In this document: positions 2,245-53,532 of the stretch, piece after piece
Numbering within the stretch: the stretch's first letter is position 1
Layout: every line of letters starts with the position of its first letter
IMG/VR virus record: IMGVR_UViG_3300037851_000538
Location: 20,368 to 84,367 of that record
DNA from: a virus
Reading direction: 5' to 3' (one strand)
DNA: 64,000 nucleotides
Made by a program: the position numbers and the translations under genes
The notes under the pieces: generated by a model
The model's input: the letters and a program-made list of their open reading frames with translations, nothing else
Told to the model about the DNA's origin: nothing
The model's database searches: none

Positions 2245-3117
2245 ATGTCCTCGAATTTGAAATGGGGGGTAGATCTGACAACGCTCCCCGCCAAAGTCGC
2301 TTCGTCTAAAGAGCCCATTGTCCGGTTCTTTGGGTATCACGATGCCCATCCGGTGGCCTTGGTGATGAGTTTATTAGGGCAGTTCGACACCGACTGGGTT
2401 GATTGGGAGCCAGACACTCTAAGAAAAGAAATCCTAACCACGTTTGAGGCTCCTTCCATAAGCCCGCACAATTGGGAGAAGATACAGGCGGCCAGAACCC
2501 TGATGACCGCCTCTACCTATTGGAATGAGTGGCACGTCTTCGAGAAAATAAACCAGGCCCTTAACAACAACATCCCAGTGTTCGATATCTCTCAAAGGTG
2601 CACTGTAGCTCAGTTGATGGCTGGGGTAGACATAGCGTCTCAAATACGAGAAGAACCCTTTGATGAGGACGAGGTAGGTAGATATATAGCATGTTGCGCC
2701 CTTGACGAGTTTATTGTGTATCTTCCTCCGCCCATCGACTTTGCTCAGAAGTATTTGAGCCAGCCGATGTACCGATGCAAGATATGCGGAAACGTAGATA
2801 ACGACGACCTGGACGGTAGGTGTGATTTTTGCACAGCTCGGTTTCAAGACGAGCACCCACTTAACTTCAAGCCGTCTGTCCACGTTTCGGATTCTGCGGG
2901 GACCGAGGTGGAGCGGTTTTTAATGCGCGACCACCTCCCGTCCAAACTACGCTTCGACGAGGTTATCTCTCGTGGGGTCAATTCGGTTAAGCTTAGTGAC
3001 GAGTCTCCAGAAGACGTTCAGGCCTTAAAGCTGTTTGTTGCTCACAGCTACATGCAAATGCGAAGATCTCAGCTTGTGGAGCAGTTGGAGGAGATAAAAT
3101 CGTGGGTAGCCCATTAA
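2245..3117 (+). CDS. Hypothetical protein with CxxC...CxxC zinc ribbon
   Basis: ORF with ATG at 2245; CKIC...CDFC; N-terminal KVAS motif. Confidence 0.65.
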   Translation: MSSNLKWGVDLTTLPAKVASSKEPIVRFFGYHDAHPVALVMSLLGQFDTDWVDWEPDTLRKEILTTFEAPSISPHNWEKIQAARTLMTASTYWNEWHVFEKINQALNNNIPVFDISQRCTVAQLMAGVDIASQIREEPFDEDEVGRYIACCALDEFIVYLPPPIDFAQKYLSQPMYRCKICGNVDNDDLDGRCDFCTARFQDEHPLNFKPSVHVSDSAGTEVERFLMRDHLPSKLRFDEVISRGVNSVKLSDESPEDVQALKLFVAHSYMQMRRSQLVEQLEEIKSWVAH

Positions 3118-3833
3118 GCCAGGTGGTTCTCAGAGCTTTTGTGGACGAGATGCAGAGCATTGAAAAATCTGCGGGACCTATCAGCTACTTTAAGAACTGG
3201 GCGAACAAGCTTCCTCAAGAGATAGGTACCGCGGCCGACAGACTTATCCACCCCATTAGGGGGGTTAGAGAGGGGTGGAAAGAGCTTAGCGGAACTGCCC
3301 ACGCGGCTTCTTTATCTCCTGAGGAGAAGGCCAATCTAGTCTCTAGGGGTTCTGGACATCTTTTTCAGCCGTCTGTGCCCTTGTCCCAGGCCGCTAGGTC
3401 TCCAAACCGCGTTAGTTCTGTTGCCGAGGAGCTATCTCGTCGTGGATGGACGGGGCAGGGAAAGATCACCAAGTATCTTCCAGTGGGGCAAAAAGGACTT
3501 ACGGTAGGGCTTGGTGGCGGATTTGCAGTTCCCTCTGTGTATGAAGCGTACAAACAGGGCCCTGTAGGTCCTACAGGGGAAGGTGGATTAGCAGAGCGAG
3601 GTCTAGGAGAACTGGCCGGTAACGCTGCCTTCATCGCGGCCGGGAAGATGGGTATTGCCCCGGCCCTGGCAATGCATGCTTTGGGTTCTGGCGTGGCTGG
3701 GAAAGCTGGACGTGTTATAGACCGATTAAGAGGTGGCGCTTCGTTGCGTCAAGCCTTGTATGCCCCGTCTCCTGTAGAAGCTCAGGAGCAGATAGCGAAC
3801 ATCGCGGAGAACTATAGTTATGGCAATGCTTGA
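3102..3833 (+). CDS. Putative virion cargo protein with FxDE leader and glycine zippers
   Basis: Leader LRAFVDEMQSIEKSA followed by Gly/Ala-rich hydrophobic segments. Confidence 0.6.
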   Translation: MGSPLSQVVLRAFVDEMQSIEKSAGPISYFKNWANKLPQEIGTAADRLIHPIRGVREGWKELSGTAHAASLSPEEKANLVSRGSGHLFQPSVPLSQAARSPNRVSSVAEELSRRGWTGQGKITKYLPVGQKGLTVGLGGGFAVPSVYEAYKQGPVGPTGEGGLAERGLGELAGNAAFIAAGKMGIAPALAMHALGSGVAGKAGRVIDRLRGGASLRQALYAPSPVEAQEQIANIAENYSYGNA

Positions 3834-5796
3834 TGCATTGAACTTCGGGCCCAGCGGGGCTCTTAGGTTCTCTAGAAATACAGGACGCTCTTTAACCGGG
3901 GAAGGTCTTGGGGCCATAAGGTACCCATCCCCGTTTTTCGACATAGCCCAAACGTACCTGCCCACATCGTTCAAAACGATGCTCAGGTGGTGCCGTTACT
4001 ACTTTCTCACTAACCCCTTAATCAACGCTGTCTGCTATAAGATGGCGGAGTATCCCGTAACTGACCTGATATTCGATTCCAAGAGCACGCACGACAACGA
4101 GCGCTGGCGGGTATTCTTTAACGAGGTTTTACACTTTAAGAAGTTTGAAGTGGAAATGGGGTTAGACTACAATTGCTACGGTAATTCTTTTGTTAGCATC
4201 TATTTCCCATTTCATAAGATGCTGTCTTGCAAGAAGTGCGGACACGCTCGTGACGTTAGAAAGCAGAAGTACATATTCAGAGAGTATAAGTTCGTTGGAG
4301 AGTGCGAGCGCTGTAAGAGCTACGGTGAGTTCGATGTTAGGGACCATTACGTACAGTCCGCTAAGCAGATACGACTTATTAGGTGGAACCCTGAGTACAT
4401 CACTATAGAACACAACGAGGCCACGGAAGAGAGCCGCTACTACTACGTCATACCCCCCTCTCTGGCCAACGACGTTCGCATGGCCAAGCGCCACGTCATA
4501 GAGACTATTCCGCAGGCCTTTATTGAAGCCCTACGACAGAACAAGGCGCTTCTTTTTAGTCGAAGCAACATTTACCACATGGCCCGCCCCACAATCGCTC
4601 AGAAGGATCGCGGTTGGGGTATGCCGATGATTCTTCCTGTGCTCAAAGACACCTTCTACCTACAGGTACTTCGTAAGGCTCAGGAGGCTATCGCGATTGA
4701 GCATGTAGTTCCTTTGAGGCTCTTGTTCCCTCAAACGTCTTCCGCAAGTGCCGACGTTTACAGTTCCATCAATTTATCCCAATGGAGAGATAAGGTTGAG
4801 CAGGAGCTGATTCGTTGGAGGCTGGATAACAACTACATACCGATTCTTCCTGTCCCTATTGGTCAGCAGACTCTAGGTGGTGATGGTAGAGCTTTAATGC
4901 TGGCTCAAGAGTATCGTCAGTGGTCAGAGCACATTGTTTCTGGAATGGGAGCACCCGTTGAGTTCATCTTTGGTGGTCTTAGTTTTTCTGGGTCGAACGT
5001 GTCTTTGAGAATGCTGGAAAACCATTTTCTAGACGTTAAGTCCTTCCGCCTTCGTTTGGTTACCGAGTTCTTGATGCCTCAGATAGGCGCGTTTATGGGG
5101 TGGGAGCCTGTTCCGTGCCACTACAAGCGTTTTAGGATGGCGGACGACCTTCAGCGTAGTGCTCTGTTCCTTCAGTACAATCAGGCTGGGAAGATCTCCG
5201 ACCGGTCTCTGTTAGAGGACACTGATTGGGATTCTGAAAAGGAGATGGAGCTCATCGAGCTCGAGCGTCGAGCGGTTCTGGAAAGTCAGAGGAGGCAGGC
5301 TCTGTCGCAGGCGGCAATACAGGGCGAGTCTCAGCTCATCATGTCTAAGTATCAGACTAGGGCTCAAAAGGTTATGCAAGAGATGATGGCCCCGCCGCCG
5401 CCCCCACAAGAGATGCAGGCTACAGACCCGGGGGCGGTTCCCGCAGAAGCCAGCCCTGCCCCGACCATGGAAATACCTCCTGGTCCTTTGGAGGACCCAA
5501 GCCAGGCACAGAACCAAGACTCTATTCAGTCTCAACTTCAATCACAGATAGGTCAAGCTCCTGCAGGAGGGTATGACGTGATGATGCTGGCTAACAAAAT
5601 AGTTAGCTGGTTGAATCAACTTCCGGACCACGAAAAGGCCCGAGAGCTGTCTGCCATGCAGGCTAACAACCCGCATTTGTATAGCATCATACTTCCTATG
5701 CTTCAGGCGTCGTCAGGAGCTGAAAGAAGTTCGGCAGCCATGCCTCTTCCGGAACAAAAACCCCCTAGAAGGGGCCCGGAGTCTGCTTTGGTCTAA
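3820..5796 (+). CDS. Probable portal protein with inserted zinc ribbon and Pro/Gln-rich tail
   Basis: 658 aa. N-terminal 'RYYFLTNPLINAVCYKMAEYPV', 'DYNCYGNSFV', 'IRWNPEYI', 'IYHM...GWGMPMI' and 'IVSGMGAPVEFI' follow a portal-like layout; CKKC/CERC insert; structural gene context. Confidence 0.7.
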   Translation: MAMLDALNFGPSGALRFSRNTGRSLTGEGLGAIRYPSPFFDIAQTYLPTSFKTMLRWCRYYFLTNPLINAVCYKMAEYPVTDLIFDSKSTHDNERWRVFFNEVLHFKKFEVEMGLDYNCYGNSFVSIYFPFHKMLSCKKCGHARDVRKQKYIFREYKFVGECERCKSYGEFDVRDHYVQSAKQIRLIRWNPEYITIEHNEATEESRYYYVIPPSLANDVRMAKRHVIETIPQAFIEALRQNKALLFSRSNIYHMARPTIAQKDRGWGMPMILPVLKDTFYLQVLRKAQEAIAIEHVVPLRLLFPQTSSASADVYSSINLSQWRDKVEQELIRWRLDNNYIPILPVPIGQQTLGGDGRALMLAQEYRQWSEHIVSGMGAPVEFIFGGLSFSGSNVSLRMLENHFLDVKSFRLRLVTEFLMPQIGAFMGWEPVPCHYKRFRMADDLQRSALFLQYNQAGKISDRSLLEDTDWDSEKEMELIELERRAVLESQRRQALSQAAIQGESQLIMSKYQTRAQKVMQEMMAPPPPPQEMQATDPGAVPAEASPAPTMEIPPGPLEDPSQAQNQDSIQSQLQSQIGQAPAGGYDVMMLANKIVSWLNQLPDHEKARELSAMQANNPHLYSIILPMLQASSGAERSSAAMPLPEQKPPRRGPESALV

Positions 5797-5801
5797 GAGC
5801 T

Positions 5802-6782: not shown

Positions 6783-6811
6783 TTGATGTGCGTTTCTTTC
6801 CGAAGTAGGAT
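6783..6811 (+). promoter_or_regulatory. Sigma70-like promoter upstream of the RNAP gene
   Basis: TTGATG-N17-TAGGAT. Confidence 0.4.
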
Positions 6812-6863
6812 TCGGTCAAAATGCTCTCTGCATAGGCACTTTCAGGAAATCCAGGAGTTAGCT

Positions 6864-14157: not shown

Positions 14158-14169
14158 CAGGAGATACCT

Positions 14170-20500: not shown

Positions 20501-21383
20501 TCCTAGGTCTATAACCCAGACCCTATTGGATACCTCTGAACTGATATCACCATCTGCGATATTCAAGCGGGTATCTACCCCCGGGACTCCTATTTTCTAC
20601 AACCCTTTTAAGAGGGAAAGGTCCCCTGACGAGTGGATGTCCGAAGTTGCATCCAATAAGGATATCCTCAACAAGCAGTTTAGAGAGCAGTTAAAGACAT
20701 CTGCCGCCGACGAATTTGTTCCTGTGGACTATGTTTTGGAGTCAATGTCCGGGTCATTACTTAAAGTAGCGAAGTTAAACTCTTTTTGTGAGGAGCTCGA
20801 AAAAATATCCTCGGCCGCTAGTAGTAGGATACCATATCAGCCCTACAGGTTCGTCAAGTCCGACCACCACATCATGTCCCATTACTGGGACAAGTTAGGC
20901 CCCGAGGTGGAGAAAATGGACGACCCCTACACTGAAGAACTTAGTAAAAAAGAGGACCAGATAGAGGAACAAAAACACGTTGAAGCCTTGAGAGCGTATT
21001 ATCGAGAAGCGGCCAAGTCCCCTCCTGGCACTATGTCTGCTAAAAATCCCTTATCGGATTCTGAGTACCTTAAACCTCTTCTTTTGGGTTCGGCTGCTGG
21101 AGGGGCTGTAATGGGTATTCCTTTGTCCATGAACGCCATTGAGGTTTTTGAGCCTAAGACTTTGAAACATACTTTGGGGATCGGGGCGGCTGCTGTTGGT
21201 GGAACAGCTCTTTTGAGCGCCGGGTTGGCGTATCACATGGCCAGGAAAAACCCCTCGTTTACTACCGCTAAGTCCAAGGCCAAAAAGCTACATAAGCTCC
21301 CCGATCAAGATCTTAGGGCCATGCTGCGCGGGCTTTCCATTAAGGAAGAGGTTGTTAAAACCACTGAGCATTACATCAAATAA
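17586..21383 (+). CDS. Fusion: LigD-type 3'-phosphoesterase + ATP-dependent DNA ligase-like domain + SNF2-like helicase + glycine-zipper tail
   Basis: PE: HDAKKSGLHVDVRL, HSFVIPK, TFDHKIPYMDFTGTISTPYGKG. Ligase: PKLDG, AFPFDVV, EEGVVL, IKAKF, FQPRF..W.LDK. Helicase: GTGSGKT, DELH, GLTGS, AGGEGLDL, QAESRAVR. Confidence 0.85.
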   Translation: MGLLLFSKQASRISEAASSSKKNSSYLEEGYIGPGLPKKKVSDLPKVDLPERWEFSAHPHDAKKSGLHVDVRLGDPVSGIAHSFVIPKTDKLPEPGSNVRVIPTFDHKIPYMDFTGTISTPYGKGEVIPGRREVAEVYHSTPEKDPGTKVRFNLYSGSHPEEFAIRKDERGRWYLHNKTQTRERRPDIPDYKPKYKEVSVDSIDPSDESQAMMPKLDGAHGIIDLKAGRSPRVYSYRVGVKTPTGLIEHTHKIPELLKTKVPKELDGTIIRAEILGRDKDGKAIPAQEIGGLLNSKVWESRKKQEQSGVKLWAFPFDVVKHKGKDVSHLPFEDKVKILKKVEESFGPVELPEIVSGTLEKIELLNKIRSKAHPLTEEGVVLIDPKKPSAPIKAKFSPDFDVFVRDIHPAISGKTGEKHDRAGSISYSWTPNGPIVGQLGGFSHGEAREMIKNPDRYIGRVAKVKAMKVFKSESGDPGALFQPRFKEWHLDKGDIEKSSAASMLTKVSEMKKKADNSSLKKDVSLYDHQKRAIEKVKSHDGNLILSHGTGSGKTLTAIAAFESLREDGKATKALVVTPASLRANFIDNGVRKFTTSRASIIGNSEEAKKGIARSLDDPDPGSRYHVISYEMFSKDPEKAIKATGADTVIYDELHRIRNDQGVTYKTIKDARKHHRNFIGLTGSLMNNTPADLVPLVDAMTDGNHRLGTKARFETRFISESKGGKKINKPQVVKALLNPFVDHFETKDLSDAKMPKKVVEEVKVMMSPYQEELYRYVVNKMDPITAIKFRLGTTKLKTHDISNIFSQIIQARQVSNSPHTIDLSLPIQDAPDKSPKVKKLLDDVEEHLKETSDGQVVIHSNLIKGGVDVLSEGLKQRNIPFSTFVGKGQPGVTEDKRQKGVEEFNSGKKRVIVISAAGGEGLDLRNATMFAGLDGHFNPEKVNQAESRAVRAGGLSHRPEEDRRVIVKRYVSVVPRSITQTLLDTSELISPSAIFKRVSTPGTPIFYNPFKRERSPDEWMSEVASNKDILNKQFREQLKTSAADEFVPVDYVLESMSGSLLKVAKLNSFCEELEKISSAASSRIPYQPYRFVKSDHHIMSHYWDKLGPEVEKMDDPYTEELSKKEDQIEEQKHVEALRAYYREAAKSPPGTMSAKNPLSDSEYLKPLLLGSAAGGAVMGIPLSMNAIEVFEPKTLKHTLGIGAAAVGGTALLSAGLAYHMARKNPSFTTAKSKAKKLHKLPDQDLRAMLRGLSIKEEVVKTTEHYIK

Positions 21384-25223: not shown

Positions 25224-25287
25224 TCTAATCTCCACATGTTAGCGTTTGAATCAATCTTTTGTGGGTCATCAACAATGCGAGGCCGAA

Positions 25288-28956: not shown

Positions 28957-31900
28957 ATGATTACCAAGCTAGCGACTTTTCGAGGGGTATCTACGGACGG
29001 GGAGCCCCTGGTAAGGGTCTTTCATCCCGGCGACTCTATCAAAAAGGTTGCTGGCGTTTTGATGCCAGATGTTCAGAACTGGCTATCATCCTATAAAAAG
29101 CAAGACGGAAAGATAGCTGTTCTAGTCAACGCGATGGGCGCTTCAGAGTACTGGGGTCAAAACATCAACGGCGACATATTCTACGAGTCGTCGTTGATCC
29201 ACGACTGCCGTCGACACTCTAGCGTAGCTCATCCTATCGACGACTTTACCGGTAAGACCATTCCTCCTTACGGGTACTGGACCTTTTTGAACGCGTTGCC
29301 CTACGTTCACCATAAAAACAAGGACCCTAGCCGCGCCTTTGGAAAAGTCGTAGTGGCGTGCTGGAATCCTAAAATGCGTCGGGTAGAGATCGTGGTCATC
29401 TTAGACCGAGCTCTAGCCATGCAACATGGGGCACAGGGCGTTATAGACAGGATAGACGCCGGAGAACACCCAGATGTTAGCATGGGATGCCTGCCTGCCG
29501 GTTCTCGTATTCTTATGGGGGACGGGTCTATTTCCGCTATAGAGTGCATTAGAGAAGGCGATTACGTCATTACGCACAGAGGGAGACCCAATAAGGTTAC
29601 CTCTGTTATGCAGAGGAAGACCTCTGAGACTTTATACAGCATAAAGGTGTATGGGTTCTCTAGGCCTCTGGAATTAACTGGAGAGCACCCCCTGTGGCTT
29701 GTTCGTGGTGATCAGTTAGAGTGCTCTCCGTCTCCTAAAAAAGCTAATTCCGGAAGGAAACAAAGACACTGCACTCCTTTCGTTAAGGAATCCTCGAAGG
29801 GGTGTGCTGGATGTCTTACGGTGCCCTCTTTTCAATTCCAGTGGACTCGGACAGACCAGGCTGAGGTTGGAGACTATTTAGCCTTTCCCATTCCTACCCA
29901 AGTGGTAGACACAGTTTCTTCAAAAGAAGAGGCCGAGTTTCTTGGGTACTACCTAGCCGAAGGGTTCGTCAAGAAATACAACTCTGAAAAAGAGCAGATT
30001 GTATTCTGCCTCGGTCTGGACGAGGTAGAGCTATCTTTAAGAATTGAAAGCCTAGCTCGGCAATTAGGGTCTCTTGTAGTCTGGCATAACGAGGACCCCG
30101 AAGGCGGTGGAAGATACGTTAACGTGGTTAGTAAGCGGCTAGCAGACCGATGTATCGAGTTCTGCGGAAAAGGTGCTAAGTACAAAAGCCTTTCTTCTGA
30201 CATCGTATATATGTCACCAGACCTTCAGCTTTCGTTCCTCGGAGCTTATTTGGACGGGGACGGCGGATCTTACAAAGGGTCTGCATATTTTTCTACGGCC
30301 TCTGAGGAGCTTGCCAATCAACTATTTGTGATTCTGTCTCGTTGCGGAATCATATCTTCAGTAAATAGAATTAGGCACTATCCGTCCAAAAACTCAGTCG
30401 TTCAGAAAGAAACTGTAGAGTACCAGGTGTGGGTAGGAACGGACTTTGCCCACCTGCTCGCTCCTTATACTAGAAAGCCTGTAGGTAAGTCTCTTAAGAT
30501 TAGGGGCCAGAGATTTTTCTACGAGGACGACTCTGGTCGGTACATCCTGTCTCCTATTTTAGAGATCAAAGAAGACCCAGACTACGATAACTACGTTTAC
30601 AATTTCTCTGTAGAGGAAGATGAAAGCTATGTCGCTGAGGGTCTGGCCGTGCACAATTGCCGGGTTCCGTACGACCGTTGTTCTCTTTGCAACAAGAAGA
30701 GCAAGACTAGGAACGACTACTGCTCTTGCCTTAAAGAGGTGGGAGTCAACAAGATTCTAGATGATGGTCGTCAGATCGGAATGATCAACGACTACCCACG
30801 CTTCTTTGACATCAGCTTCGTCTTTATCGGGGCGGATAAGACGGCGAAGATGATGTGCAAGCTGGGGTCCGCGTCTTCTAACATCCCCCAATCGGTGTTG
30901 GATGCGGAGTACATTTATGGAGAGTCAGACGAGTTAGTTAAAGCAGCTTCAAGTTTGGATAAAGAGAAAGATGCAGACTACGACCTGCTTAAGAGGGTTT
31001 TTACGGGAGCCGCTATTGGTGCTTTAGGGGGGGCTGGTTATCACGCTCTTAAAGGACCGGTTTCAGCAAACATCCCACTGGTAACTAGGAGCCAGGCTTT
31101 GGACAACAAGGGGATTGACCCAGTTTTTGAGGCTGGCAAACGTCTAACGGAAGATTCTCCTCGTCAGGCAGCCGTATCTCGATCTTCTAAGGCATGGCGG
31201 AGGGGTAAAAATATACCTATTTCTGGGATGGACGTTAGGGTTTATAGAGGGCAGTTCGTAGCAGAGGTGTCTCCCGATGGACGAGTAGATGTAGCAGGGA
31301 GAAAAGCCCCTGTTGTCGTAGAGGGATCTTTGCCTAAAGGGTGGACGCCTGAATCTTTGAAAACAAAAATCCAAAAGCACGTAGATGAGCACCTGTTCCA
31401 GATAGGCGACTCTGGGAGCCCCGTAAAAACTTCTGCAGGAAGTATGGCCTTAGTGAAAGAGGCTTACGAGTCGCAGGACTATTCAAGACGCGGGGGCAAG
31501 ATATACTCCGACATTGTCACCAATCGCCCCGACATTGCTGAAGGCTGGAAGTCTAGAGGATTAAATCCGAAATGGTCTGAAGAGGGTTATTGGGAGGTTT
31601 CTGAAGAGGTAACAGACCCCCAAGAGCTTCAAAGCGCTAGTAAGTATGTTTCCGAGATGGAAAGACTCTCTAAGCGCATGTTTAGGGGCTACAACATCGC
31701 GGGTTCAACTGCCGCGGGGGCCACCATGGGTGGTCTTCTAGGGGCCGCCGCGTCTCGTAAGAAACCAATTATCGCTGCGGGGGCGGCATTGGGGGCCGTG
31801 GGTGGTGGTCTTCTAGGGAACAAACTTGCTGAAGCTAATGACCCGGACATTGCTCTTCGTGACTTGGTCAGAAAAGGCCCACCCATAAAGCTCTACGTAG

Positions 31901-34900
31901 GGAAAAACGATACGCAAGATACTCCCGGACGTTCTTTAGTGGGGGACGGACTTCTACGCACCAACGCCGCTCAAGATGAGAGGGATACGTTTCCACAGCC
32001 GTTGACCCCCAGCAAAGGCAAGACAGCTTCCCCCTACGACTACGTTTTGTGGATGAAGCGGAAGACTGCGGCAGACGTTCTTGCTGGTGGTAAAGCAGAC
32101 GGAAAACCCGCGTCTGATTTTTCCCAGTCTCAGCTTGAGATGGGAGCCAAGGTAGAAAAAGAGCATACCCATAGCGGTGAGCTAGCTGAAGAGATTGCTC
32201 GAGACCATCTGGAAGAGATTCCGGACTACTACACCCGTCTTAAGAAGATGGAAGAGCGAGCTAAGAGCGAGGGTAAGTTAAAAGAAGCTTCTTTTCGATT
32301 TCCCGGGCCCACCCTTTCTGAAGAACTATTTAACGAGGCTGTTCTTAAAAGAGCTTTGATTGGTGGGGCTCTGGGTGGAGCTGGAGGTGCCGCAGCTGAC
32401 TCGGATAACAGATTAAGGGGCGGTCTTATAGGGGCGGGTTCTGGAGCAACTCTGGGAGTTTTGGGTGGAAGAGTTGCTAGAGACATTTCTAAGAAAAACA
32501 TACTGAAACAGTTCAAAGATCAGCATCGTAAGTGGCAGGAGGCTCGTGTTTCTCTACGTGATCTAGACAATGAATCTGGTCGTCTTCGTCTTATGGGTAA
32601 AGAAATAAAGAACCGCCCATTTGATGCGAAAGCGTATGACGATCTTAACGCGGCATACAACAGACTTGGCGAGGAAAGAAGTGCCAGGAATCGAGCATAT
32701 TTGGCTTCTAGACCCGATCCTCTATTAAGATACAACTGGCACCAAAAAAGTCATCCAGAGTGGGGAACCCTAAAAGAAGATTATATTGGAGGGCTGGCTG
32801 GTGGAGTTTTAGGGGCAGGCACCGCGGGAGTCGTTGGGGGGGTATCTCCTTCTGAGAAAACTGCCGCTGTTGTAGATAAAGTTATCCTTACAAGCACGCC
32901 AGATAAGGTAAAAAAGCTAGTTGATGTTCTTTACCGCATGGAAGGGGTACGCCCACCCAGTTTGTCCTCTAGAAATTATACTCCAGAAAAGACTAGAGAG
33001 ATTATTAAGAGCTTGAGAAGTTTAAGAAACTCTCAAGCCATAAATCCTGTTCCTCGCGGTTCAGATTTATGGCGTAGAGCCATGAGGGATATAAAAGAGT
33101 CCCGTTTCACAGACTTGGAATCTGGAATAAGCAGTTCTCAGGCTCCTAGCATTTTGAAGTACGGCCCCTCGTCTTCTATAGGAATTCCATCAGAAAATAT
33201 GCCTGAAATCCGTAAGGCCATATCCAAATCTTTAGACTCTGCTAGTGAAGGTTCTTTGAGAAAATCAACGCACGGGATTTATAGCGCTCGTAAAGGAACT
33301 GACCGAACCAAGATGGACTATGCCTCGAGGGCCGCAGAAATAACAAACAGCCGCCCGGAGGTCCTTAGTTTTTCTTTACCTCAGTCCCTGGCGATCCCTA
33401 ATAGCCCTGAGGAATATCGAGTACCCCACTCCGTATTTAGACAGTGGGCTAGAAATACAAAAGTGGCATCTGAGAAAACTGCTTCAGGTTCTCTACAAAA
33501 GGTCTTTTCAGATGCCGCCTCTATTGAAATAGGACCTCCCCCAACTCCTAATCGTAAAGAGTTCCCGTTTGTCGGCACGATCAACTTCAACGGACTGACC
33601 ATACATATAGAAAACGCTCCTGGGGACGTTAGGGAGGGCACTGACCCTAGAGGCAAAAAATGGCGTACGGAGATGAAACTCCCTTACGGGGAGATTAACG
33701 GTACTCTTGGTGTGGACCAGGACAAGCTAGACGCCTATGTTGGTCCGTATGAGGATGCCGACAATGTTTACATCATTCACCAGAACAAGGTGACTGGTGA
33801 AGACAAGGGCACGTACGATGAAGACAAGGTCATGCTTGGATTCAAAGATGCTGAACAGGCTAAAGACGCGTACCTAGCTCATTACAATCGACCCGACTAT
33901 TTTAGGTCTATGACGGTCATGTCTTTAGACCTATTCAAGAAGGCTCTTAGGACTAAAGAAGTGCATGGGGAAAAGGTAGCGTCAGCTTATTCCCACATGA
34001 TGGAAAAGGTTGCTCTTGATATTCGACTGGAAGACCTGTTCGTAAATAGCGGAACGGATTCTAGAAGGGTTCGCGTCTGGAAAGACAAAGAGTCTGGTAA
34101 GGAAACCGTAAAAGTCGATTCCGGCATGGGGTCTTTCGATAAAACAAAGACGGCTTCAGCTCCTCGTAAGATAGCAGCTCAGTTAAAGAGCGCGGACATA
34201 GAGAAGGAGATTCCTCCGTACAAAGCGGTTGGTCGTGCTTCTGCCCTATCTAGGTCTGAGGAAGATCTTCCTCCAGATGTTTTAGACTCCGTGGCGTCAT
34301 CTGGAGTGGAGAGGGCTTTAGCTACTCCTTCTCTTATGGGCATGGTTTTGAAGCCCGAAGAATTCCAGAGGATGGTGCTCGTATGCAACGGTCACAAGGG
34401 GTTGGCCGATGATCTAGACTCCCGCGGAGCAGTGTTTGGCCCTACTGAGGGGGAAGAGCCTCTTACTAGAACTTTGTCCGATTCAGACTTTTCCGATGAG
34501 GTTCTTAGGAAGCTTTTGCCCTATCTAGAAAACCGGTCCTACTTCGGTCCTGTGGTTCGCAGGAGGGTTATACGAATTATCGTAAGGGACCCTAAGCCTG
34601 TGGAGACCCAAAGAACAGAAGAAACCTCTCCTCTTCTATCTAAGATTGGTGCTGCCTACAATTGGTACCGCAAGGAGCAAGTTAAGTTAGCTTCTGCTGC
34701 TGACCGGGTCATTAGGGATAAATCAGACCTCGGCAGAGCTATTTTGGGAGTAACTGACGTGGACTTGTTTAAAGGCGCTTCTCATTACGTTTCAGTAGAC
34801 CCTAAGCTCCTGGGCGTGATGGTGGGTAGTGTTCCTTTGTCTTTGATGTACTCTGCACACTTGAGGGATGCGCGAGAGGGTGGCCAAGACCTTCCTTTGT

Positions 34901-35052
34901 GGAAGGACTTGATAGCGGACCATCCGGTATTGTCCACGATTGGTTCTTTGGCTGCTTTAAGAAAGGTTCTTCAGACTCCGCAAGGAAGGCAGGCGGTGGA
35001 GGAGATCTTTTCTGCTGGAAAGAGGATCTGGACGGGGAAGTCCAGTGAATAG
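28957..35052 (+). CDS. Polyprotein: putative prohead serine protease (intein-split) + glycine-zipper modules + DUF5661-like + inorganic pyrophosphatase-like (InPase) domain + C-terminal domain
   Basis: NINGDIF, YVHHKN, DVSMG|CRVPYDRCSLC and FFDISFV..GAD fit HK97/herpes-type maturation proteases. MGAKVEKEHT...EIARDHLEEIPDYYTRL is DUF5661-like. IHIENAPG..R.G...YGEI.GT.GVD.DKLDAYVGP...DEDKVMLGF is InPase-like. The gene lies upstream of the scaffold and capsid genes. Confidence 0.75.
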   Translation: MITKLATFRGVSTDGEPLVRVFHPGDSIKKVAGVLMPDVQNWLSSYKKQDGKIAVLVNAMGASEYWGQNINGDIFYESSLIHDCRRHSSVAHPIDDFTGKTIPPYGYWTFLNALPYVHHKNKDPSRAFGKVVVACWNPKMRRVEIVVILDRALAMQHGAQGVIDRIDAGEHPDVSMGCLPAGSRILMGDGSISAIECIREGDYVITHRGRPNKVTSVMQRKTSETLYSIKVYGFSRPLELTGEHPLWLVRGDQLECSPSPKKANSGRKQRHCTPFVKESSKGCAGCLTVPSFQFQWTRTDQAEVGDYLAFPIPTQVVDTVSSKEEAEFLGYYLAEGFVKKYNSEKEQIVFCLGLDEVELSLRIESLARQLGSLVVWHNEDPEGGGRYVNVVSKRLADRCIEFCGKGAKYKSLSSDIVYMSPDLQLSFLGAYLDGDGGSYKGSAYFSTASEELANQLFVILSRCGIISSVNRIRHYPSKNSVVQKETVEYQVWVGTDFAHLLAPYTRKPVGKSLKIRGQRFFYEDDSGRYILSPILEIKEDPDYDNYVYNFSVEEDESYVAEGLAVHNCRVPYDRCSLCNKKSKTRNDYCSCLKEVGVNKILDDGRQIGMINDYPRFFDISFVFIGADKTAKMMCKLGSASSNIPQSVLDAEYIYGESDELVKAASSLDKEKDADYDLLKRVFTGAAIGALGGAGYHALKGPVSANIPLVTRSQALDNKGIDPVFEAGKRLTEDSPRQAAVSRSSKAWRRGKNIPISGMDVRVYRGQFVAEVSPDGRVDVAGRKAPVVVEGSLPKGWTPESLKTKIQKHVDEHLFQIGDSGSPVKTSAGSMALVKEAYESQDYSRRGGKIYSDIVTNRPDIAEGWKSRGLNPKWSEEGYWEVSEEVTDPQELQSASKYVSEMERLSKRMFRGYNIAGSTAAGATMGGLLGAAASRKKPIIAAGAALGAVGGGLLGNKLAEANDPDIALRDLVRKGPPIKLYVGKNDTQDTPGRSLVGDGLLRTNAAQDERDTFPQPLTPSKGKTASPYDYVLWMKRKTAADVLAGGKADGKPASDFSQSQLEMGAKVEKEHTHSGELAEEIARDHLEEIPDYYTRLKKMEERAKSEGKLKEASFRFPGPTLSEELFNEAVLKRALIGGALGGAGGAAADSDNRLRGGLIGAGSGATLGVLGGRVARDISKKNILKQFKDQHRKWQEARVSLRDLDNESGRLRLMGKEIKNRPFDAKAYDDLNAAYNRLGEERSARNRAYLASRPDPLLRYNWHQKSHPEWGTLKEDYIGGLAGGVLGAGTAGVVGGVSPSEKTAAVVDKVILTSTPDKVKKLVDVLYRMEGVRPPSLSSRNYTPEKTREIIKSLRSLRNSQAINPVPRGSDLWRRAMRDIKESRFTDLESGISSSQAPSILKYGPSSSIGIPSENMPEIRKAISKSLDSASEGSLRKSTHGIYSARKGTDRTKMDYASRAAEITNSRPEVLSFSLPQSLAIPNSPEEYRVPHSVFRQWARNTKVASEKTASGSLQKVFSDAASIEIGPPPTPNRKEFPFVGTINFNGLTIHIENAPGDVREGTDPRGKKWRTEMKLPYGEINGTLGVDQDKLDAYVGPYEDADNVYIIHQNKVTGEDKGTYDEDKVMLGFKDAEQAKDAYLAHYNRPDYFRSMTVMSLDLFKKALRTKEVHGEKVASAYSHMMEKVALDIRLEDLFVNSGTDSRRVRVWKDKESGKETVKVDSGMGSFDKTKTASAPRKIAAQLKSADIEKEIPPYKAVGRASALSRSEEDLPPDVLDSVASSGVERALATPSLMGMVLKPEEFQRMVLVCNGHKGLADDLDSRGAVFGPTEGEEPLTRTLSDSDFSDEVLRKLLPYLENRSYFGPVVRRRVIRIIVRDPKPVETQRTEETSPLLSKIGAAYNWYRKEQVKLASAADRVIRDKSDLGRAILGVTDVDLFKGASHYVSVDPKLLGVMVGSVPLSLMYSAHLRDAREGGQDLPLWKDLIADHPVLSTIGSLAALRKVLQTPQGRQAVEEIFSAGKRIWTGKSSE
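29488..30657 (+). mobile_element. Intein (390 aa) with LAGLIDADG homing endonuclease
   Basis: Starts CLPAGSRILMGDG; block B LTGEHPL; LAGLIDADG motifs FLGYYLAEG and FLGAYLDGDG; ends VYNFSVEEDESYVAEGLAVHN followed by Cys+1. Confidence 0.95.
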
Positions 35053-35134: not shown

Positions 35135-35761
35135 ATGAACTCTTTTTTGGCGAATCTTTACGGTACTGGTCAGGACATCGGCACTAACGCTGAGGTTGAG
35201 AAGCTCGCAGAGGCTCAGGTGATTGACGAGCAGCTTCGGAGTGAGGGCATCGACGTCAATAGCCTCAGCGGCGAGGACATCTTGAAGTGCGCCTACGCCC
35301 TTTTTGGCGACGAGAGTGCTCTCGTCAAGTCGGCTCAAGAAGAGGGCGAAGAGGAAGAAGAGGGCGAGGAGTCAGAAGAGAAGGAAGAGAGCGCCGAGGA
35401 GAAGGTGGCTGAGGCGGACTTCCTTGGTCGTGTGATGGCTCACGCCTACTATCAAGAGAAGAACCTGATCGAGAAGCAGGCTGGCATCAAGGATTCCTTA
35501 AAGAGCATCCCTGGGCACATAAAGAGCCTTCCGGGGAAGTTGGGGGATAAGGCCCGAAGAATGCGCATGTCTCATCAGGATGCTTGGTTGGAGAGCCAGG
35601 CCTTGGGGTCAGGGCGTCTTAAGGCTCACATGAAGGGTTTAGCTAACGTAGCGAAGGAACATCCGAAGACCGTGGCAGGTCTTGCGGGAGGAGCGGCATT
35701 GGCAGGGGGCGGTGGGTACGCTGTTAGCCGGAAGAAGAAGAAGAACACTCAGCAGAGCTAG
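35135..35761 (+). CDS. Acidic head core/scaffold-like protein with C-terminal Gly-zipper anchor
   Basis: GAGGAG SD; poly-Glu tract; EKLA, KCA, KSA, EKVA, EKQA; ends HPKTVAGLAGGAALAGGGGYAVSRKKKK. Confidence 0.6.
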   Translation: MNSFLANLYGTGQDIGTNAEVEKLAEAQVIDEQLRSEGIDVNSLSGEDILKCAYALFGDESALVKSAQEEGEEEEEGEESEEKEESAEEKVAEADFLGRVMAHAYYQEKNLIEKQAGIKDSLKSIPGHIKSLPGKLGDKARRMRMSHQDAWLESQALGSGRLKAHMKGLANVAKEHPKTVAGLAGGAALAGGGGYAVSRKKKKNTQQS

Positions 35762-35763: not shown

Positions 35764-36048
35764 ATGATCAAGACGCTGGCTTCTTTCATAGACGAGCTGC
35801 AAAAGATTTCGGCAGCTACCAACGTGGCTTCGGTAATGTCCGGGTCATTAGGTAGGGCCAAGTCTGTGCAGAACGTGATGGGGAAGCCAGCGTTCTCTAA
35901 GCCCAACGTACAAACCATGCGCTTTGGGTCTAGGGATATGACCGCGAAGCCCACTAACTATTCGATTGTTAACACTGAAGCGCCAACGGCGGCGTATGAT
36001 GCGGCAGCTACGAGTAAATCGGTGCCACCGCCGCCTGTGAGAACGTAA
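35764..36048 (+). CDS. Small protein with FxDEL-K leader
   Basis: MIKTLASFIDELQKISA. Confidence 0.6.
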   Translation: MIKTLASFIDELQKISAATNVASVMSGSLGRAKSVQNVMGKPAFSKPNVQTMRFGSRDMTAKPTNYSIVNTEAPTAAYDAAATSKSVPPPPVRT

Positions 36049-38864: not shown

Positions 38865-39989
38865 ATGAGTATGGTTCAGGCTTCCATCGAGATGTTCAAT
38901 CAGCGTCTCGACTCGCAAGAAGGCAAGGACAAGTTGGCTGAGCTGGGCGGTTCGTGGATTCGCGACCGTCTGCGTGAAGTGTCGTTCATGCGGCACTTGC
39001 TTCCTCCGGAGCAGGTTACGCGGGCTGACTGTCAGCGTTCGGTGAATCACGACACGCTGGTCAAGATCGTTGACATCGAGCCGCAAAGCCGCGCGATGGC
39101 GATCACGTTCCGCGACCAGCCCACGGCCCGGTTCATCCGCGCCCCGAAGGCTGAGATTCCGTTCTTCACGATCTCATCGGAGAAGTTCGAGAAGACGGAG
39201 CAGGAGCTCCTCGCCTACGAAATGCCCATCACCAAGGTCATCGAAGACAACACGGTGAAGGACATTCAGGAGATCGAGGACCGCGAGGGTCTTCGTCACC
39301 TCGAGGCCGGCGTCCAGGCGATGCAGACAGAGGTCAACACGACTACGACGGTTGCGTACAACGCTACCAATATTCGTGCTCTGAATGCCAATGCCCAGGT
39401 CGTTTCGGTTGTGAAGGGCGAGCTCGCTCTTGCGGCTGACGGTACGGACTTTGTGGTTCGTCCGGTGCAGCGTCCTGACTTCGTGAATCTCTTCAAGATC
39501 CTCGACGGCCGGCGTCTCCGTTCGGAGCGCGTTCTGATCACCGAAGTGGACCACGACGACGTTCTTCAGTGGACGGTCGAGGACTTTGGCGATCGCATCC
39601 AGTCCGAGACGGTTGTTGACGGCTACAAGTACAACACGCTGCTCGGCCGCAAGGTTGTTCGTACGGTGAAGACGGACCTTCTCCGCCCGGGCAACATCTT
39701 CGTCTTCACGGCGCCGCAGTTCTTCGGGAAGTTCTACATCCTGAACAACACGAAGTTCTACATCGACAAGATCGCGAACGTCATCACGTGGCAGTCGTGG
39801 GAAGACATCGGCATCGGCCTCATCAACGTGTCGGCTTGGGCGAAGCTCGAGCTCTACCGCGGCTCGGTTCGTCCGACTGCGTATGACACCGGCTGGACTG
39901 CGAAGCTTCCTGTGTCCGAGGAAGATCTGGGCGCAGAGAACAATCGGGTTGACCGCGGGCTGCACTACCCGAGTGTTCAGCAGTATTAG
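38865..39989 (+). CDS. Major capsid protein (HK97-fold predicted)
   Basis: 374 aa, TAAGGAG SD, extreme high-expression codon bias; layout 'IRDRLREVSFMRHLLP...IPFFTISS..F......L......I....DIQEIEDR' and 'LLGRKVVRT....L.PGNIFVF'. Confidence 0.8.
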   Translation: MSMVQASIEMFNQRLDSQEGKDKLAELGGSWIRDRLREVSFMRHLLPPEQVTRADCQRSVNHDTLVKIVDIEPQSRAMAITFRDQPTARFIRAPKAEIPFFTISSEKFEKTEQELLAYEMPITKVIEDNTVKDIQEIEDREGLRHLEAGVQAMQTEVNTTTTVAYNATNIRALNANAQVVSVVKGELALAADGTDFVVRPVQRPDFVNLFKILDGRRLRSERVLITEVDHDDVLQWTVEDFGDRIQSETVVDGYKYNTLLGRKVVRTVKTDLLRPGNIFVFTAPQFFGKFYILNNTKFYIDKIANVITWQSWEDIGIGLINVSAWAKLELYRGSVRPTAYDTGWTAKLPVSEEDLGAENNRVDRGLHYPSVQQY

Positions 39990-42757: not shown

Positions 42758-42794
42758 GTTTCCGTTCTGATTATTGCGTATGTATAGTGTACCA

Positions 42795-43847
42795 ATGCGA
42801 AGAGAAACTTTGGTAGGCTTTTACGACGAAATTACTTCCATTCACGATCTAGAGAAAACAGCTATCGACCCGGTCACTATGCTTCTCGGTGGGGCTGCTT
42901 CTCATATTGGAACTAATCTTGTCGCTAGGAAGCTCCACCATTCTCCGCTCTTAACTTCTGCACGTAGTAAAGGGCTGGGTAGAGGCATACGAGAAGCTAT
43001 AGAGGGAAAACCTAGGGGCTTCAAAAGTAGGGCCACTGAACTCTTGGCGGGTCCGGACTTCACGGCGTCTGAAGATATTGGCCGTCTGTTGGGTAGCGGT
43101 TTGAGAAATAAAAGTAGAGGACAGCAACACAGAGCGTTGAAAAAACTGCGTAAGGCAACGGCTATGGCTCCAGAAGATGTGCGGTCCCTTCCATTTTTTG
43201 AAGATTTGGTTCCTGGTATAAATAGGGCTTTAGAAGCCCCACTTCCTAGAACCGGGAGAATCGAACAACTGTCGCGTGCTCAGAGAGCTGCTCCTTATCT
43301 CGCTGCTGCTCCTGCCGCGATCTTGGAGCCCGGCGCAGCAGTACATATGGGAGTTAATAAGCTAAGGTCCTTGGCCGCAAATTCACCTTTAGGGAAAAAG
43401 TTTGCAAAAAACTCTTTGATAGCCGGAGCTCGAGAATCTACCTTGGCGGATAGGGTTATGGGGGCTCTTCCAGGCGAGGCAAAGACAGACGTCGTCCGTG
43501 CGGGTCTATCTCCAAAGAAAAGAAGCAGGATGAGCGACTTAGCTACGGAGGTGTTTTTATCTCCTGCTTCTCAAGCACCAAAAACTATTTCAAGGGGGGT
43601 AGCGGATTCTTTATCTAATCCTGCAAACGTTAGGCCTATTACTCGGTTCGTGTCGGCTTTACACAACGTTGCGGGTCCTAAGCCTGGTAATGTGGCATCT
43701 CAAGCTCTGTCGAGTATTTCTGAGGCATCTAAAGGTCTGACCGGCACTGTGAGGGATTTGAGCAATCGTGCTTCTGGGGTGATTGGTGCGAAGACCAGAC
43801 CCACTCCTACCTTAATGGGCCGACAGCCCCGTCCGATCCCAGGATAG
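42795..43847 (+). CDS. Putative virion cargo protein with FxDE leader
   Basis: MRRETLVGFYDEITSIHDLEKTA then a basic, amphipathic body. Confidence 0.6.
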   Translation: MRRETLVGFYDEITSIHDLEKTAIDPVTMLLGGAASHIGTNLVARKLHHSPLLTSARSKGLGRGIREAIEGKPRGFKSRATELLAGPDFTASEDIGRLLGSGLRNKSRGQQHRALKKLRKATAMAPEDVRSLPFFEDLVPGINRALEAPLPRTGRIEQLSRAQRAAPYLAAAPAAILEPGAAVHMGVNKLRSLAANSPLGKKFAKNSLIAGARESTLADRVMGALPGEAKTDVVRAGLSPKKRSRMSDLATEVFLSPASQAPKTISRGVADSLSNPANVRPITRFVSALHNVAGPKPGNVASQALSSISEASKGLTGTVRDLSNRASGVIGAKTRPTPTLMGRQPRPIPG

Positions 43848-46040: not shown

Positions 46041-46933
46041 TAGAGGTACTATCTATAATGGTTCGGTCGTACGACTTGGACCATTTAGATGTTTTTTGGA
46101 CTCTTAATTCTCAGTCTGAAGAGTCCATTAGCGCTTACGATTTCTTTGTTCTCCGAAGTGTGGATGGGGCCGCCGGTCCGTATAATACGATCGCCGGCCC
46201 CTTCCATAACACTTACCTGTTTAGGGATGGGGATGTCCAACAGCTACACAAGTGGAGAAACTACTTTTACAAAATCAGGTTGGTACGTCGTTCCGACCAA
46301 GTTTCTTCAGAGCACGGGCCTCAATGCCTTCAAGCCCCTCCTGATCGAATTGCCCTCGAAATCCAAAGGCGCGAAGCCCTTTTGTTCAAAGAGTTTGCCG
46401 GTCGTCTAGTATTTTTGTTTCCTCAGCTAACCTTTGGTCAGCGTTGTGGTCACTGCTGGGACGTTAGTTCGAGGGGGAACACTATTGGAAGAGCCGTGCA
46501 GCAGAACTGCCACTCTTGCTACGATACTACCTTTGTGGGGGGTTTTTGTACGCCTATGGGAATCTTTGTGCAGATAGACCCTTCTCCTATTCAGCCACAA
46601 AGAACGGACTTGAAAGAGCACCAATTCGTCAAGACGACTGCACGAACTTGGGCGTTCCCTCCTATTCGTCCTAAGGACATGATTGTTGAGGCAGAGAACA
46701 AACGCTGGCTCGTGGAGGCGGTATCTGTAACTGAAAAAGGCAGAGCAACAATTAGGCAGGAGTTGTCTCTTACTGCCTATCCCAAAGACGACATTAAGTA
46801 CGCCGTCCCCGTTCAGTCCCCAGCCAACCTCATGCACAGTCCTGAGAGGGAATTCACTCGACCTATGTGTGTGGACTACCCGTCTAATGACCCGGACATT
46901 AGCGCGACGGATAGATTCGAGGTTCCTCTATGA
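46037..46933 (+). CDS. Probable neck/head-closure protein (FN3-like N-terminus, zinc motif)
   Basis: 'LDVFW...FFVLRS...GPY..IAGP...YFYKIR'; RCGHC...CHSC; 'PKDMIVE..NKRWLV'. Confidence 0.55.
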   Translation: MIEVLSIMVRSYDLDHLDVFWTLNSQSEESISAYDFFVLRSVDGAAGPYNTIAGPFHNTYLFRDGDVQQLHKWRNYFYKIRLVRRSDQVSSEHGPQCLQAPPDRIALEIQRREALLFKEFAGRLVFLFPQLTFGQRCGHCWDVSSRGNTIGRAVQQNCHSCYDTTFVGGFCTPMGIFVQIDPSPIQPQRTDLKEHQFVKTTARTWAFPPIRPKDMIVEAENKRWLVEAVSVTEKGRATIRQELSLTAYPKDDIKYAVPVQSPANLMHSPEREFTRPMCVDYPSNDPDISATDRFEVPL

Positions 46934-47304
46934 GAATTTCTCTAGAGTCTTTTTTCGACGAGCTGACTAAGATTGCTGAAGAGTCCCCTAACGCCTCTAA
47001 TCAGCAACAAGAGTGGCGTCCTCCAAACTCTGTAGAGATTAAGGAGCTTTTGCGCCACGCTGCTCTGGCCGGTCTTGGTTCTGGTATTGGGGCTGGTTTA
47101 GGTTTTGTTGTTGCCCCTAAAGTCATACCTAAGCTTTACGAGAAGCTGGGGCCGGAAAAATTCACGATGCTTATGGGCGTTGGTGGTTCTGTTTCTGGAA
47201 TCCTATCGGACTTAGCTTTTAGGAAGGCATACCAGAACATTTCCGCGGCTGGACAAGCTGAAGAGGAGCGCAGGCGTGTCGAGAGAGAGCGTCAGCGTCT
47301 GTAA
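46930..47304 (+). CDS. Small protein with FxDEL-K leader and Gly zipper
   Basis: MRISLESFFDELTKIA; AGLGSGIGAGLG. Confidence 0.6.
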   Translation: MRISLESFFDELTKIAEESPNASNQQQEWRPPNSVEIKELLRHAALAGLGSGIGAGLGFVVAPKVIPKLYEKLGPEKFTMLMGVGGSVSGILSDLAFRKAYQNISAAGQAEEERRRVERERQRL

Positions 47305-53250: not shown

Positions 53251-53259
53251 GGAAGTACT

Positions 53260-53532
53260 ATGACATTCAACGATGTTACTACTGCGGCATTCTTTGATGA
53301 GCTGGAAAAGATTGGACACCTCAACAAAGAAGCCATTAGCTTCACTCAGGGCGGCAAGCTGATGAAGGCCTTGAAGGCTGACGTAGCTAAGCCCATTGCC
53401 CAAATGCCTGCTGGACCTATGGCGGCAGGGCCTGCGGCAGCTGCGGTCAATCCGGCTAAGGCTCGCATGCAGGCGCGTTTCGGTGCGGCTATGGCCCCTA
53501 AGACCGTCGGTGGGCGCGGGCTTCAGTTCTAA
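53260..53532 (+). CDS. Small protein with FxDEL-K leader
   Basis: TAAFFDELEKIGHLNKEA. Confidence 0.6.
   Translation: MTFNDVTTAAFFDELEKIGHLNKEAISFTQGGKLMKALKADVAKPIAQMPAGPMAAGPAAAAVNPAKARMQARFGAAMAPKTVGGRGLQF

Follow-up and report, generated by a model that had tools for sequence, protein, structure and literature searches.

In a 64,000-nucleotide stretch of viral DNA (the window, bases 20368-84367 of the 84,367-bp contig G000; IMG/VR record IMGVR_UViG_3300037851_000538), unrelated proteins encoded in the late gene block carry the same short peptide, mostly at their extreme N-terminus. This peptide, referred to here as the leader, has the consensus form [S/A/G]-F-h-[D/E]-E-[L/M]-x-K-I-[A/G/S], is conserved at the peptide level, is restricted to one clade of uncultured tailed phages and to the late block of their genes, and is followed by protein sequences that bear no relation to each other. 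In our opinion it is best read as a portable docking helix through which cargo proteins are brought into the virion, a reading to which we assign a probability of about 0.5.

Copies of the leader in the contig

A six-frame scan with the regular expression F.[DE]E[LMI]..[IL] (i.e. F-x-[DE]-E-[LMI]-x-x-[IL]) returned six matches in the window and the identical six in the whole contig, all on the plus strand and in the frame of a gene (Table 1), with no match on the minus strand of the 84,367 bp. In five of these copies the Phe lies 7-13 residues past the likeliest start codon, two of the starts being located behind clear Shine-Dalgarno sequences, and the six protein parts that follow the motif share no mutual similarity (best BLASTP E 0.059). 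These results substantiate a previous sequence-only reading of the window, which had described five N-terminal copies of a shared leader followed by unrelated sequences. The eight peptides quoted in that reading were all found in the sequence where it had placed them, but among the three that it listed as internal copies only LNSFCEELEKISS stands, the other two, GFLDELFEKRA and AYYQEKNLIEKQA, scoring below 5 bits with the leader profile. The former (1652..1684, plus strand), rejected here as a leader copy, lies inside a folded domain of a 768-amino acid (aa) protein, the coding region of which begins 67 bases ahead of the window, and aligns to a stretch, ..EL.EKRASIEP.., that is conserved in four orthologues.

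The first carrier in the window is encoded directly upstream of the portal gene, whose start it overlaps, and has a GTG start at 3102 behind GGAGGAG. This gene begins with the leader or a variant of it in all seven related loci that hold the gene and also in the complete relative G005; across relatives the Phe and the closing K-x-A are both kept and the spacing between them is variable. In the 1265-aa ligase/helicase protein, the internal copy follows the helicase and precedes a conserved C-terminal tail that has two Gly-rich hydrophobic segments. Thirteen codons ahead of this copy there is an in-frame ATG (20745) with GGAG before it, so that a second product, consisting of the C-terminal ~210 residues and tagged at its N-terminus, might be made as well. 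A different N-terminal motif, M-P-[FY]-x-S-E-x-Q-R-R-[LF]-[FL], was noticed in some orthologues of the helicase (L305, L306, L307); it also heads a 64-aa open reading frame (ORF) of L089 that ends in the leader.

The 94-aa carrier represents the most widely conserved carrier family, made up of the leader, a variable linker and a conserved C-terminal TNY...PPPPVRT, with F8, E11 and K14 invariant. AlphaFold2 modelled residues 3-21 of this family as a helix at a predicted local distance difference test (pLDDT) score of ~70, and the remainder as coil. The C-terminal element (K-P-T-N-Y-S-x-V-N ... P-P-P-P-V-R-T), present in the window copy and 20 relatives, is a second conserved feature of these proteins; it is modelled without secondary structure (pLDDT 69-85) and could be a second docking peptide.

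As for the remaining carriers, the variant at the N-terminus of the 357-aa protein drops to 7.8 bits with a narrower model, its candidate starts being located 3-15 codons upstream. The 124-aa protein contains Gly-zipper-like segments, and its gene is flanked by two conserved genes and precedes that of the sheath; a leader gene occupies the matching position in G005, at 160.8 kb. The 90-aa carrier gene lies directly after two tube-region genes, with its ATG at 53260 behind AAGGAAG. A homologue search with this protein in a 5.8-billion-protein set found itself alone; such a search needs several shared 5-residue words and, therefore, a 9-residue tag is not traceable by it. Its first 30 residues retrieved nothing from 50,697 GenBank phages in a tblastn search.

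Anatomy of the leader

Ninety-seven distinct N-terminal leaders were tabulated, starting from a seed biased by the regular expression and by a scan for the octapeptide FFDELEKI. Taking the Phe as position 0, this residue and the Glu at +3 are present in all leaders, as the regular expression demands. Position -3 is often L or M, -1 is S, A or G in 90 of the 97, and +1 is mostly F, L or V; D (90 leaders) or E (7) occupies +2, followed by L at +4 (82), K at +6 (85), I at +7 (91) and A, S or G at +8 (79). A second flavour has three inserted residues, the example in the window being F-V-D-E-M-Q-S-I-E-K-S-A.

The hydrophobic positions 0, +4 and +7, together with -3 and +1, collect on one face of a helix, and the hydrophobic moment of the leader is 1.0-2.05 at 100 degrees as compared with 0.3-1.0 at 160 degrees. 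The amphipathic helix postulated in the sequence-only reading is thus borne out as a prediction, both by this moment and by the moderate-confidence AlphaFold2 helix in the 94-aa family. In short stand-alone helices, capping and dipole preferences favour small end residues, an acidic first turn and a Lys near the end. The small flanks, acidic first turn and late Lys of the leader would be the traits of a capped helix of this type.

Occurrence beyond chance and restriction to one clade

Scanning of 80 related capsid-gene loci (1.01 Mb) with the regular expression yielded 38 matches on the gene strand versus 2 on the opposite strand, nearly all of them 8-20 residues past the preceding stop. A profile hidden Markov model of the motif gave, at 12 bits or more, 59 gene-strand matches versus none on the opposite strand, and the search of genome and relatives that had been suggested along with the sequence-only reading thereby confirms the gene-strand excess. 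A stricter DNA pattern applied to five complete relatives matched 28 times on the gene strand and once on the opposite strand, the reversed pattern being absent. Every synonymous codon is used at the F, D, E, L, K and I positions of the 83 distinct motif sites, and this free codon choice argues for selection on the peptide rather than on a DNA or RNA signal.

An IMG/VR-wide scan for DNA encoding FFDELEKI identified 51 loci. Of the 47 peptides retrieved from this database, 34 count as N-terminal if a Met within 14 residues is required and 39 if any start codon is accepted; S, A or G precedes the octapeptide in 43 and A, G or S follows it in 44. A control scan of prokaryotes, with one genome per species, found at least 120 loci with FFDELEKI-coding DNA; among the matches listed, the peptide is N-terminal in 3 of 76 by the Met rule or 7 of 76 with any start, and S, A or G precedes the Phe in 11 of 76. 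The N-terminal share differs between IMG/VR and the prokaryotic matches listed with a Fisher p of ~3e-16. The rarity of N-terminal FFDELEKI among these prokaryotic matches indicates that this placement is specific to the phage group and not a property of the octapeptide. The motif strings were not found in a full-text literature search, most subscription journals being outside its reach.

All ten large carrier contigs tested encode a homologue of the capsid protein of the window (39-68% identity). This protein has 276 relatives in IMG/VR and marks the leader-carrying clade; it contains neither the leader nor a K-x-A-[AGS] site itself. The contig, estimated by CheckV to be 42% complete, belongs to a large group of uncultured tailed phages whose genomes measure 178-202 kb and in several cases have direct terminal repeats, and the leader-using phages have genomes of ~190 kb. 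The closest cultured phages are Salmonella phage Arash (24% identity in the capsid protein, 31% in the terminase) and three Vibrio phages.

Carrier proteins and the location of their genes

The profile scan of all fetched sequence produced 189 matches of at least 10 bits in 135 distinct stop-to-stop segments. A crude rule classified 168 of these matches as N-terminal, 17 as internal and 4 as C-terminal, several of the internal ones merely starting with GTG or TTG and three belonging to unrelated contigs. C-terminal copies include those of the ligase ORF of G001 and the adjacent 64-aa ORF, which both end in the motif, and likewise that of a 149-aa ORF of G005. The 115 distinct complete carriers, with a median size of 108 aa, group into 69 families without detectable similarity past the leader, a count inflated by a clustering method that over-splits short, fast-evolving proteins. 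The proposal that the leader is portable among unrelated proteins is supported.

Pfam was run on 64 of the 69 family representatives, leaving out three from the contig, which were scanned separately, and two chance matches; it recognized one InPase, one DUF6321, two weak Gly zippers and one P-loop kinase, whose leader is probably due to chance, and nothing in the other 59. Two carriers of 150-168 aa (L083, L098) show by eye a C-x-C ... C-x-H pattern reminiscent of SWIM zinc fingers, with no Pfam match, and in contig L128 the leader is directly followed by a HELGH motif.

Leaders occur in the contig only between 3.1 and 53.3 kb of the window, which corresponds to the late block, with none in the replication block or in the block at 54-64 kb. 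In terms of proteins, this means 6 of 31 in the structural block versus 0 of the 31 others (p 0.024), a modest enrichment given that structural and other proteins were split by position and annotation and not by proteomics. The sequence-only reading had held that a motif equally frequent among non-virion proteins would speak against a capsid signal; in this contig it is absent from the 31 proteins outside the structural block.

The leader is found in about 6-13 proteins per genome, with ~11-13 leader genes in the complete relative G005. Four of the latter hold the same positions as in the window, namely upstream of the portal gene, before the capsid gene (the 94-aa family), between two conserved pre-sheath genes and after the tube region, with sequences that have diverged beyond BLAST recognition. 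Overall, the leader genes of this relative are distributed over tail, head and neck modules and around a helicase/InPase cluster. In this cluster, at 100-103.6 kb, the gene of a leader protein is followed by those of an SNF2 helicase with a leader variant (SLWEELEKCA) at its N-terminus, of an 81-aa protein (AFWGELESLEKQA), of a 291-aa protein with InPase and of one more leader protein. Whereas helicase, InPase and small proteins have separate genes in G005, each with a leader or a variant, the window encodes the helicase in fusion with the ligase, with one internal leader, and the InPase within a 2031-aa giant. The same modules thus exist either fused or individually tagged.

A proposed docking helix for virion cargo

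In the mechanism that we propose, the capped amphipathic helix, with its hydrophobic stripe of F0, L4 and I7, would act as a docking element that the phage attaches, mostly at the extreme N-terminus, to a fast-changing set of proteins. These tagged proteins would be recruited during late assembly to one common partner and would finally be part of the virion, most probably as cargo that is internal to the head or ejected. The cargo set would largely consist of small Gly-zipper proteins, plus enzymes of the polyvalent type such as InPase, SNF2 helicase and ligase. We infer that the leader binds a partner, that this partner is a component of the procapsid and that the carriers are packaged.

A clue to the partner may come from an acidic, predicted all-helical protein of 208 aa encoded four genes upstream of the capsid gene, which has the look of a scaffold. 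AlphaFold2 modelled its residues 21-70 and 91-115 with pLDDT above 90, and an alignment of 29 family members revealed invariant D95, G98, R99, A102, H103 and E108. Its most conserved stretch is ADFLGRVMAH-AYYQEKNLIEKQA, the last 13 residues being encoded at 35444-35482; in the family this stretch reads A-D-F-L-G-R-V-M-A-H-S-Y-V-x-E-L-x-x-I-(E)-K-x-A, is modelled at pLDDT above 90 and is in residue-for-residue register with the leader from the Ser onward. The regular expression matches the orthologous segment in 4 of the 80 related loci (3 distinct sequences). The likeness of the AYYQEKNLIEKQA segment to the leader is a resemblance and serves as a lead; if the 208-aa protein were the scaffold, the cargo tags might imitate its binding segment, and the partner of the leader would possibly be the one bound by this look-alike segment. 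The window copy of the protein ends ~90 residues earlier than its 28 relatives, and it is missing a conserved pair of C-terminal helices (..SALD.LAE.RA.E.. and ..AVE.RA.E.LE.AGY..) which these relatives have. Foldseek searches with the model found nothing in PDB or BFVD at E <=0.001, and the recurrence of its N-terminal domain in the 340-, 304- and 528-aa proteins was considered and discarded, being unsupported by profile search (best E 0.29).

The connection with virions comes from homologues. According to the available part of the study by Iyer et al. (PMC5512222), phage polyvalent proteins and InPase domains are likely to be packaged in the head and injected. The available part of the work on Arash (PMC10585845) reports 116 virion proteins identified by mass spectrometry. 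Among the most abundant are Gp206 and Gp216, which are subunits of the RNA polymerase; 38 unique peptides and 1148 spectra were assigned to the DNA helicase Gp217, and 16 unique peptides to Gp222. Arash Gp217 is 29% identical (E 1e-44) to the helicase region of the 1265-aa leader protein, and Gp222 is homologous to the N-terminal portion of the 2031-aa protein. In addition, the two halves of the fused RNA polymerase of the window match Gp206 and Gp216, which are encoded by separate Arash genes, and this homology suggests a virion-packaged RNA polymerase here too. The wider lineage thus packages enzymes of this kind, and one of the carrier families has a homologue in virions.

Several observations weigh against the docking helix as a packaging signal. 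The phages that bear the motif are uncultured, and their link to virions is indirect, by way of the Arash homologues. Arash and Vibrio phage D181 gave no match to a loose DNA pattern of the motif, with an estimated ~0.3 matches expected by chance. Arash therefore packages a homologous helicase without the motif, and the tag is unneeded for packaging in that lineage; it would be a device of this clade and no universal requirement. Within the clade, a leader at the position of LNSFCEELEKISS is present in three of seven related helicases (L303, L304, L305) and missing in the other four. The role of the 208-aa protein as scaffold is presumptive, and its similarity to the leader is weak, since the leader model scores 1 of the 29 family members at 5 bits or more and none at 10 bits or more. 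No binding partner of the leader was identified; a complex prediction that combined the capsid protein, residues 1-70 of the 208-aa protein and residues 1-40 of the 94-aa family gave no verdict, and its score of 0.01 versus a mark of 0.32, obtained without controls, speaks neither for nor against binding. The late-block enrichment in the contig is, as stated, modest. Finally, the G005 leader genes at 60.8, 61.6, 62.3 and 76.0 kb have large tail, fibre and baseplate-like genes as neighbours, and with carrier genes in tail and baseplate modules the destination may not be the head.

Possible cleavage at K-x-A and other explanations

The sequence-only reading regarded the leader together with its K-x-A site as a 'pack me then cut me' tag, similar to that of T4. 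This alternative supposes a propeptide that targets the procapsid core and is then cut at K-x-A by the head maturation protease, the same enzyme also cutting the big proteins of the head module. It is supported by the excess of K-x-A-[AGS] in the structural-block proteins, with 54 sites observed versus 21.9 expected (z 7.8) in a whole-protein shuffle that ignores local low-complexity composition. The other proteins have 14 sites versus 12.6 expected, and the reversed motif, A-x-K, which is a partial control for composition, is not enriched. The excess is replicated in G005, where the same orthologue families are enriched (48 versus 24.3 expected), in the head block at 121.5-171 kb only. Sites concentrate in seven proteins, of 768, 672, 528, 2031, 630, 304 and 340 aa, several of them at residues 8-30, and none is present in the capsid, portal, sheath, tube-region and spike proteins. 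The 2031-aa protein has 14 sites and no leader, with K-x-A-S flanking both DUF5661 (residues 1050 and 1109) and InPase (1507 and 1673). This distribution looks like that expected of maturation-protease sites, the protease being a candidate only. Retention of K-x-A in the gene family upstream of the portal, in spite of its variable distance from the Phe, and the ending of 77 of the 97 leaders in K-x-[AGS] also fit with cleavage. The sites, mostly K-[TVL]-A-S, were seen to be densest at -67..2239, 14170-16188, 25246-26832, 28957-35052 and 36061-37953.

On the other hand, strict K-x-A-[AGS] is found in only 18 of the 97 leaders, cutting of the C-terminal copies would remove only a few residues, and the small residues at the flanks of the helix may be explained equally well as helix caps. 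Four protease families were not found either: Peptidase_S78 (PF04586) and Peptidase_S77 (PF03420, with E up to 1) are absent from the contig and four complete relatives, and CLP_protease (PF00574) and Peptidase_S49 (PF01343) from the five complete relatives G001-G005. Pfam and PHROGs searches with 41 window proteins returned no protease match. The sole HExxH protein, a 285-aa product (21431-22288) with a HELGH motif and hydrophobic segments, was rejected as head protease because the five complete relatives have no homologue of it. A conserved 302-aa family encoded upstream of the portal region was rejected as well, being helical with a zinc ribbon and not protease-like. The portable tag was correctly anticipated in the sequence-only reading, and K-x-A-[AGS] is enriched in some head-module proteins, but neither a gp21-type protease nor a strict site in most leaders was found. 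Removal of the tag at K-x-A is possible but unproven, and we deem this T4-like scheme, taken as a whole, unlikely. It is tempting to combine both elements into a two-part, modular loading code, made up of a capped 9-residue docking helix copied from the binding segment of the scaffold and of a K-x-A site at which a head protease of unrecognized family would act. Together they would serve to load and quickly swap a dozen or more cargos per genome, from Gly-zipper membrane proteins to helicase, ligase and pyrophosphatase modules, and also to split the polyvalent giants into individually tagged genes and join these again. This proposal is speculative and, in our view, somewhat unlikely.

A different possibility is that the helix docks elsewhere, either in the tail lumen, the baseplate or an ejection complex, or that after ejection it works at the membrane surface or in oligomerization, helping a Gly-zipper channel to form in the host envelope. 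Gly-zipper-like patterns are indeed found in 52 of 114 carriers versus 33 of 176 background ORFs, and the location of the G005 leader genes mentioned above, as well as that of window leader genes flanking the sheath and tube region, would be in line with such a destination. Nonetheless, soluble enzymes (InPase, helicase/ligase) are tagged too, only 5 of the 114 carriers have a classical hydrophobic segment, and an acidic helix without a basic face would be unusual at a membrane surface, all of which makes this explanation quite improbable.

Finally, the short length and N-terminal position of the leader, for which no partner is known, would also suit a degron, a handle for a chaperone or for timing or another non-structural process, or the remnant of an ancestral N-terminal module spread by recombination with no common function today, but the invariance of F0 and E3 and near-invariance of D/E2, L4, K6 and I7 in 97 leaders, their restriction to the late block and the conservation of a motif whose surroundings diverge beyond recognition, which argues for present-day selection, render this very unlikely.

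Gene content of the window

The coordinates of the leaders and of the other recognizable genes are compiled in Table 1. The replication genes (RusA, RecA-like, HU, PolA, primase, DnaB with an intein, UDG and helicase) are located outside the window, in the first 20 kb of the contig and on the opposite strand. Two inteins were recognized: an insertion of Hint plus LAGLIDADG at residues ~177-569 of the 2031-aa polyvalent protein, and a splicing domain in the DnaB-like helicase (contig 13402-15798, outside the window). Two genes upstream of that of the portal, at 2209-3117, the window encodes a member of a conserved family of ~290 aa, also present in L294-L301 and L168; its members are helical and contain an inserted CxxC...CxxC zinc ribbon, except for that of G005, in which the ribbon is missing. 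The 672-aa protein had no match among GenBank phages, and phmmer searches of this protein and of the portal against PDB gave nothing useful.

Table 1. Leaders and annotated genes of the window (window coordinates).
Feature	Coordinates	Strand	Remarks
Leader LRAFVDEMQSIEKSA, IEK-x-A variant	3129..3173	+	N-terminus of ORF 3102-3833 (243 aa); 18.0 bits
Internal leader LNSFCEELEKISS	20775..20813	+	About residue 1066 of the 1265-aa protein (ORF 17586-21383); 15.9 bits
Leader LASFIDELQKISA	35776..35814	+	N-terminus of ORF 35764-36048 (94 aa); 24.5 bits
Leader variant LVGFYDEITSIHDLEKTA	42810..42863	+	N-terminus of ORF 42774-43847 (357 aa); 13.3 bits
Leader LESFFDELTKIA	46942..46977	+	N-terminus of ORF 46930-47304 (124 aa); 24.3 bits
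Leader TAAFFDELEKIG	53281..53316	+	N-terminus of ORF 53260-53532 (90 aa); 24.4 bits
Portal protein	3820..5796	+	Annotated portal of Arash (Salmonella phage): 33% identity, E 8e-79; portal of Bacillus phage G: 23% identity
Fused beta-beta' RNA polymerase	6783-13049		Single 2088-aa ORF with beta (Rpb2-type) and beta' (Rpb1-type) domains
Spike-like baseplate protein	13060-14157		
LigD-phosphoesterase/ligase/SNF2-helicase protein	17586-21383	+	1265 aa
Large terminase	23135-24940		
Polyvalent protein	28957..35052	+	2031 aa; intein, DUF5661, InPase
Scaffold-like protein	35135..35761	+	208 aa
Major capsid protein	38865..39989	+	phrog_2522; homologue in Arash (24% identity)
Sheath	48081-51734		
ParB, helicase, dNMP kinase, transglycosylase	From 54 kb on		

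Implications and comparison with known systems

If the docking reading is correct, the leader would rank as a packaging signal of very small size, defined by its sequence and portable by nature, which is seen on at least 69 unrelated families, and it would provide a rule for spotting genes of injected cargo among the 'dark matter' of a widespread environmental clade. It would also be a second natural example, beside T4, for the engineering of protein delivery by phage capsids, and would connect the way in which giant polyvalent proteins evolve with modules tagged one by one. The K-x-A sites, in turn, may point to a maturation protease outside the current family libraries.

The closest known thing in function would be the capsid targeting sequence of T4, which the accessible part of the pertinent report describes as the sole element conserved among diverse internal proteins, which it guides to the scaffolding core inside the prohead, and as able to bring in foreign proteins as well, GFP among them (PMC3012670). 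In both cases a short N-terminal peptide is shared by unrelated proteins of one phage. However, the peptide is different, no gene for a Peptidase_S77 (gp21-type) enzyme is found in the contig and four complete relatives, C-terminal and internal copies exist, and carriers per genome are far more numerous and include enzymes of the polyvalent type. Without a gp21-type system, the tag would resemble the T4 signal at most by analogy, and we do not regard the leader as a member of the T4 system.

In phages phiKZ and SPN3US the head protease is known, mass spectrometry has revealed where it cuts, and the propeptides are not known to form a single common helix. The available portions of the reports on these phages (PMC5694885, PMC7411985, PMC10052503) describe a short protease consensus in many head-internal proteins, several of them near the N-terminus, a distribution to which that of K-x-A-[AGS] may be similar. 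The element shared by the carriers in the present clade differs in being a defined helix of nine residues. A further parallel is found in the peptides of encapsulins and microcompartments, short and portable, which dock unrelated cargo inside a shell and need no cleavage for it, the encapsulin shell having the HK97 fold. Those of encapsulins are usually C-terminal and not helical, and these systems are cellular nanocompartments, whereas the tag described here is mostly N-terminal, predicted to be helical and encoded by a tailed phage that packages DNA. Lastly, the polyvalent proteins have the same set of domains as found in this clade (InPase, DUF5661, helicase/ligase and Gly zippers) and a predicted packaging and injection; in the part of that study available their packaging is ascribed to their joining with head-associated domains in a single large polypeptide (PMC5512222), whereas in this clade the modules also exist as separate genes, each of them tagged.

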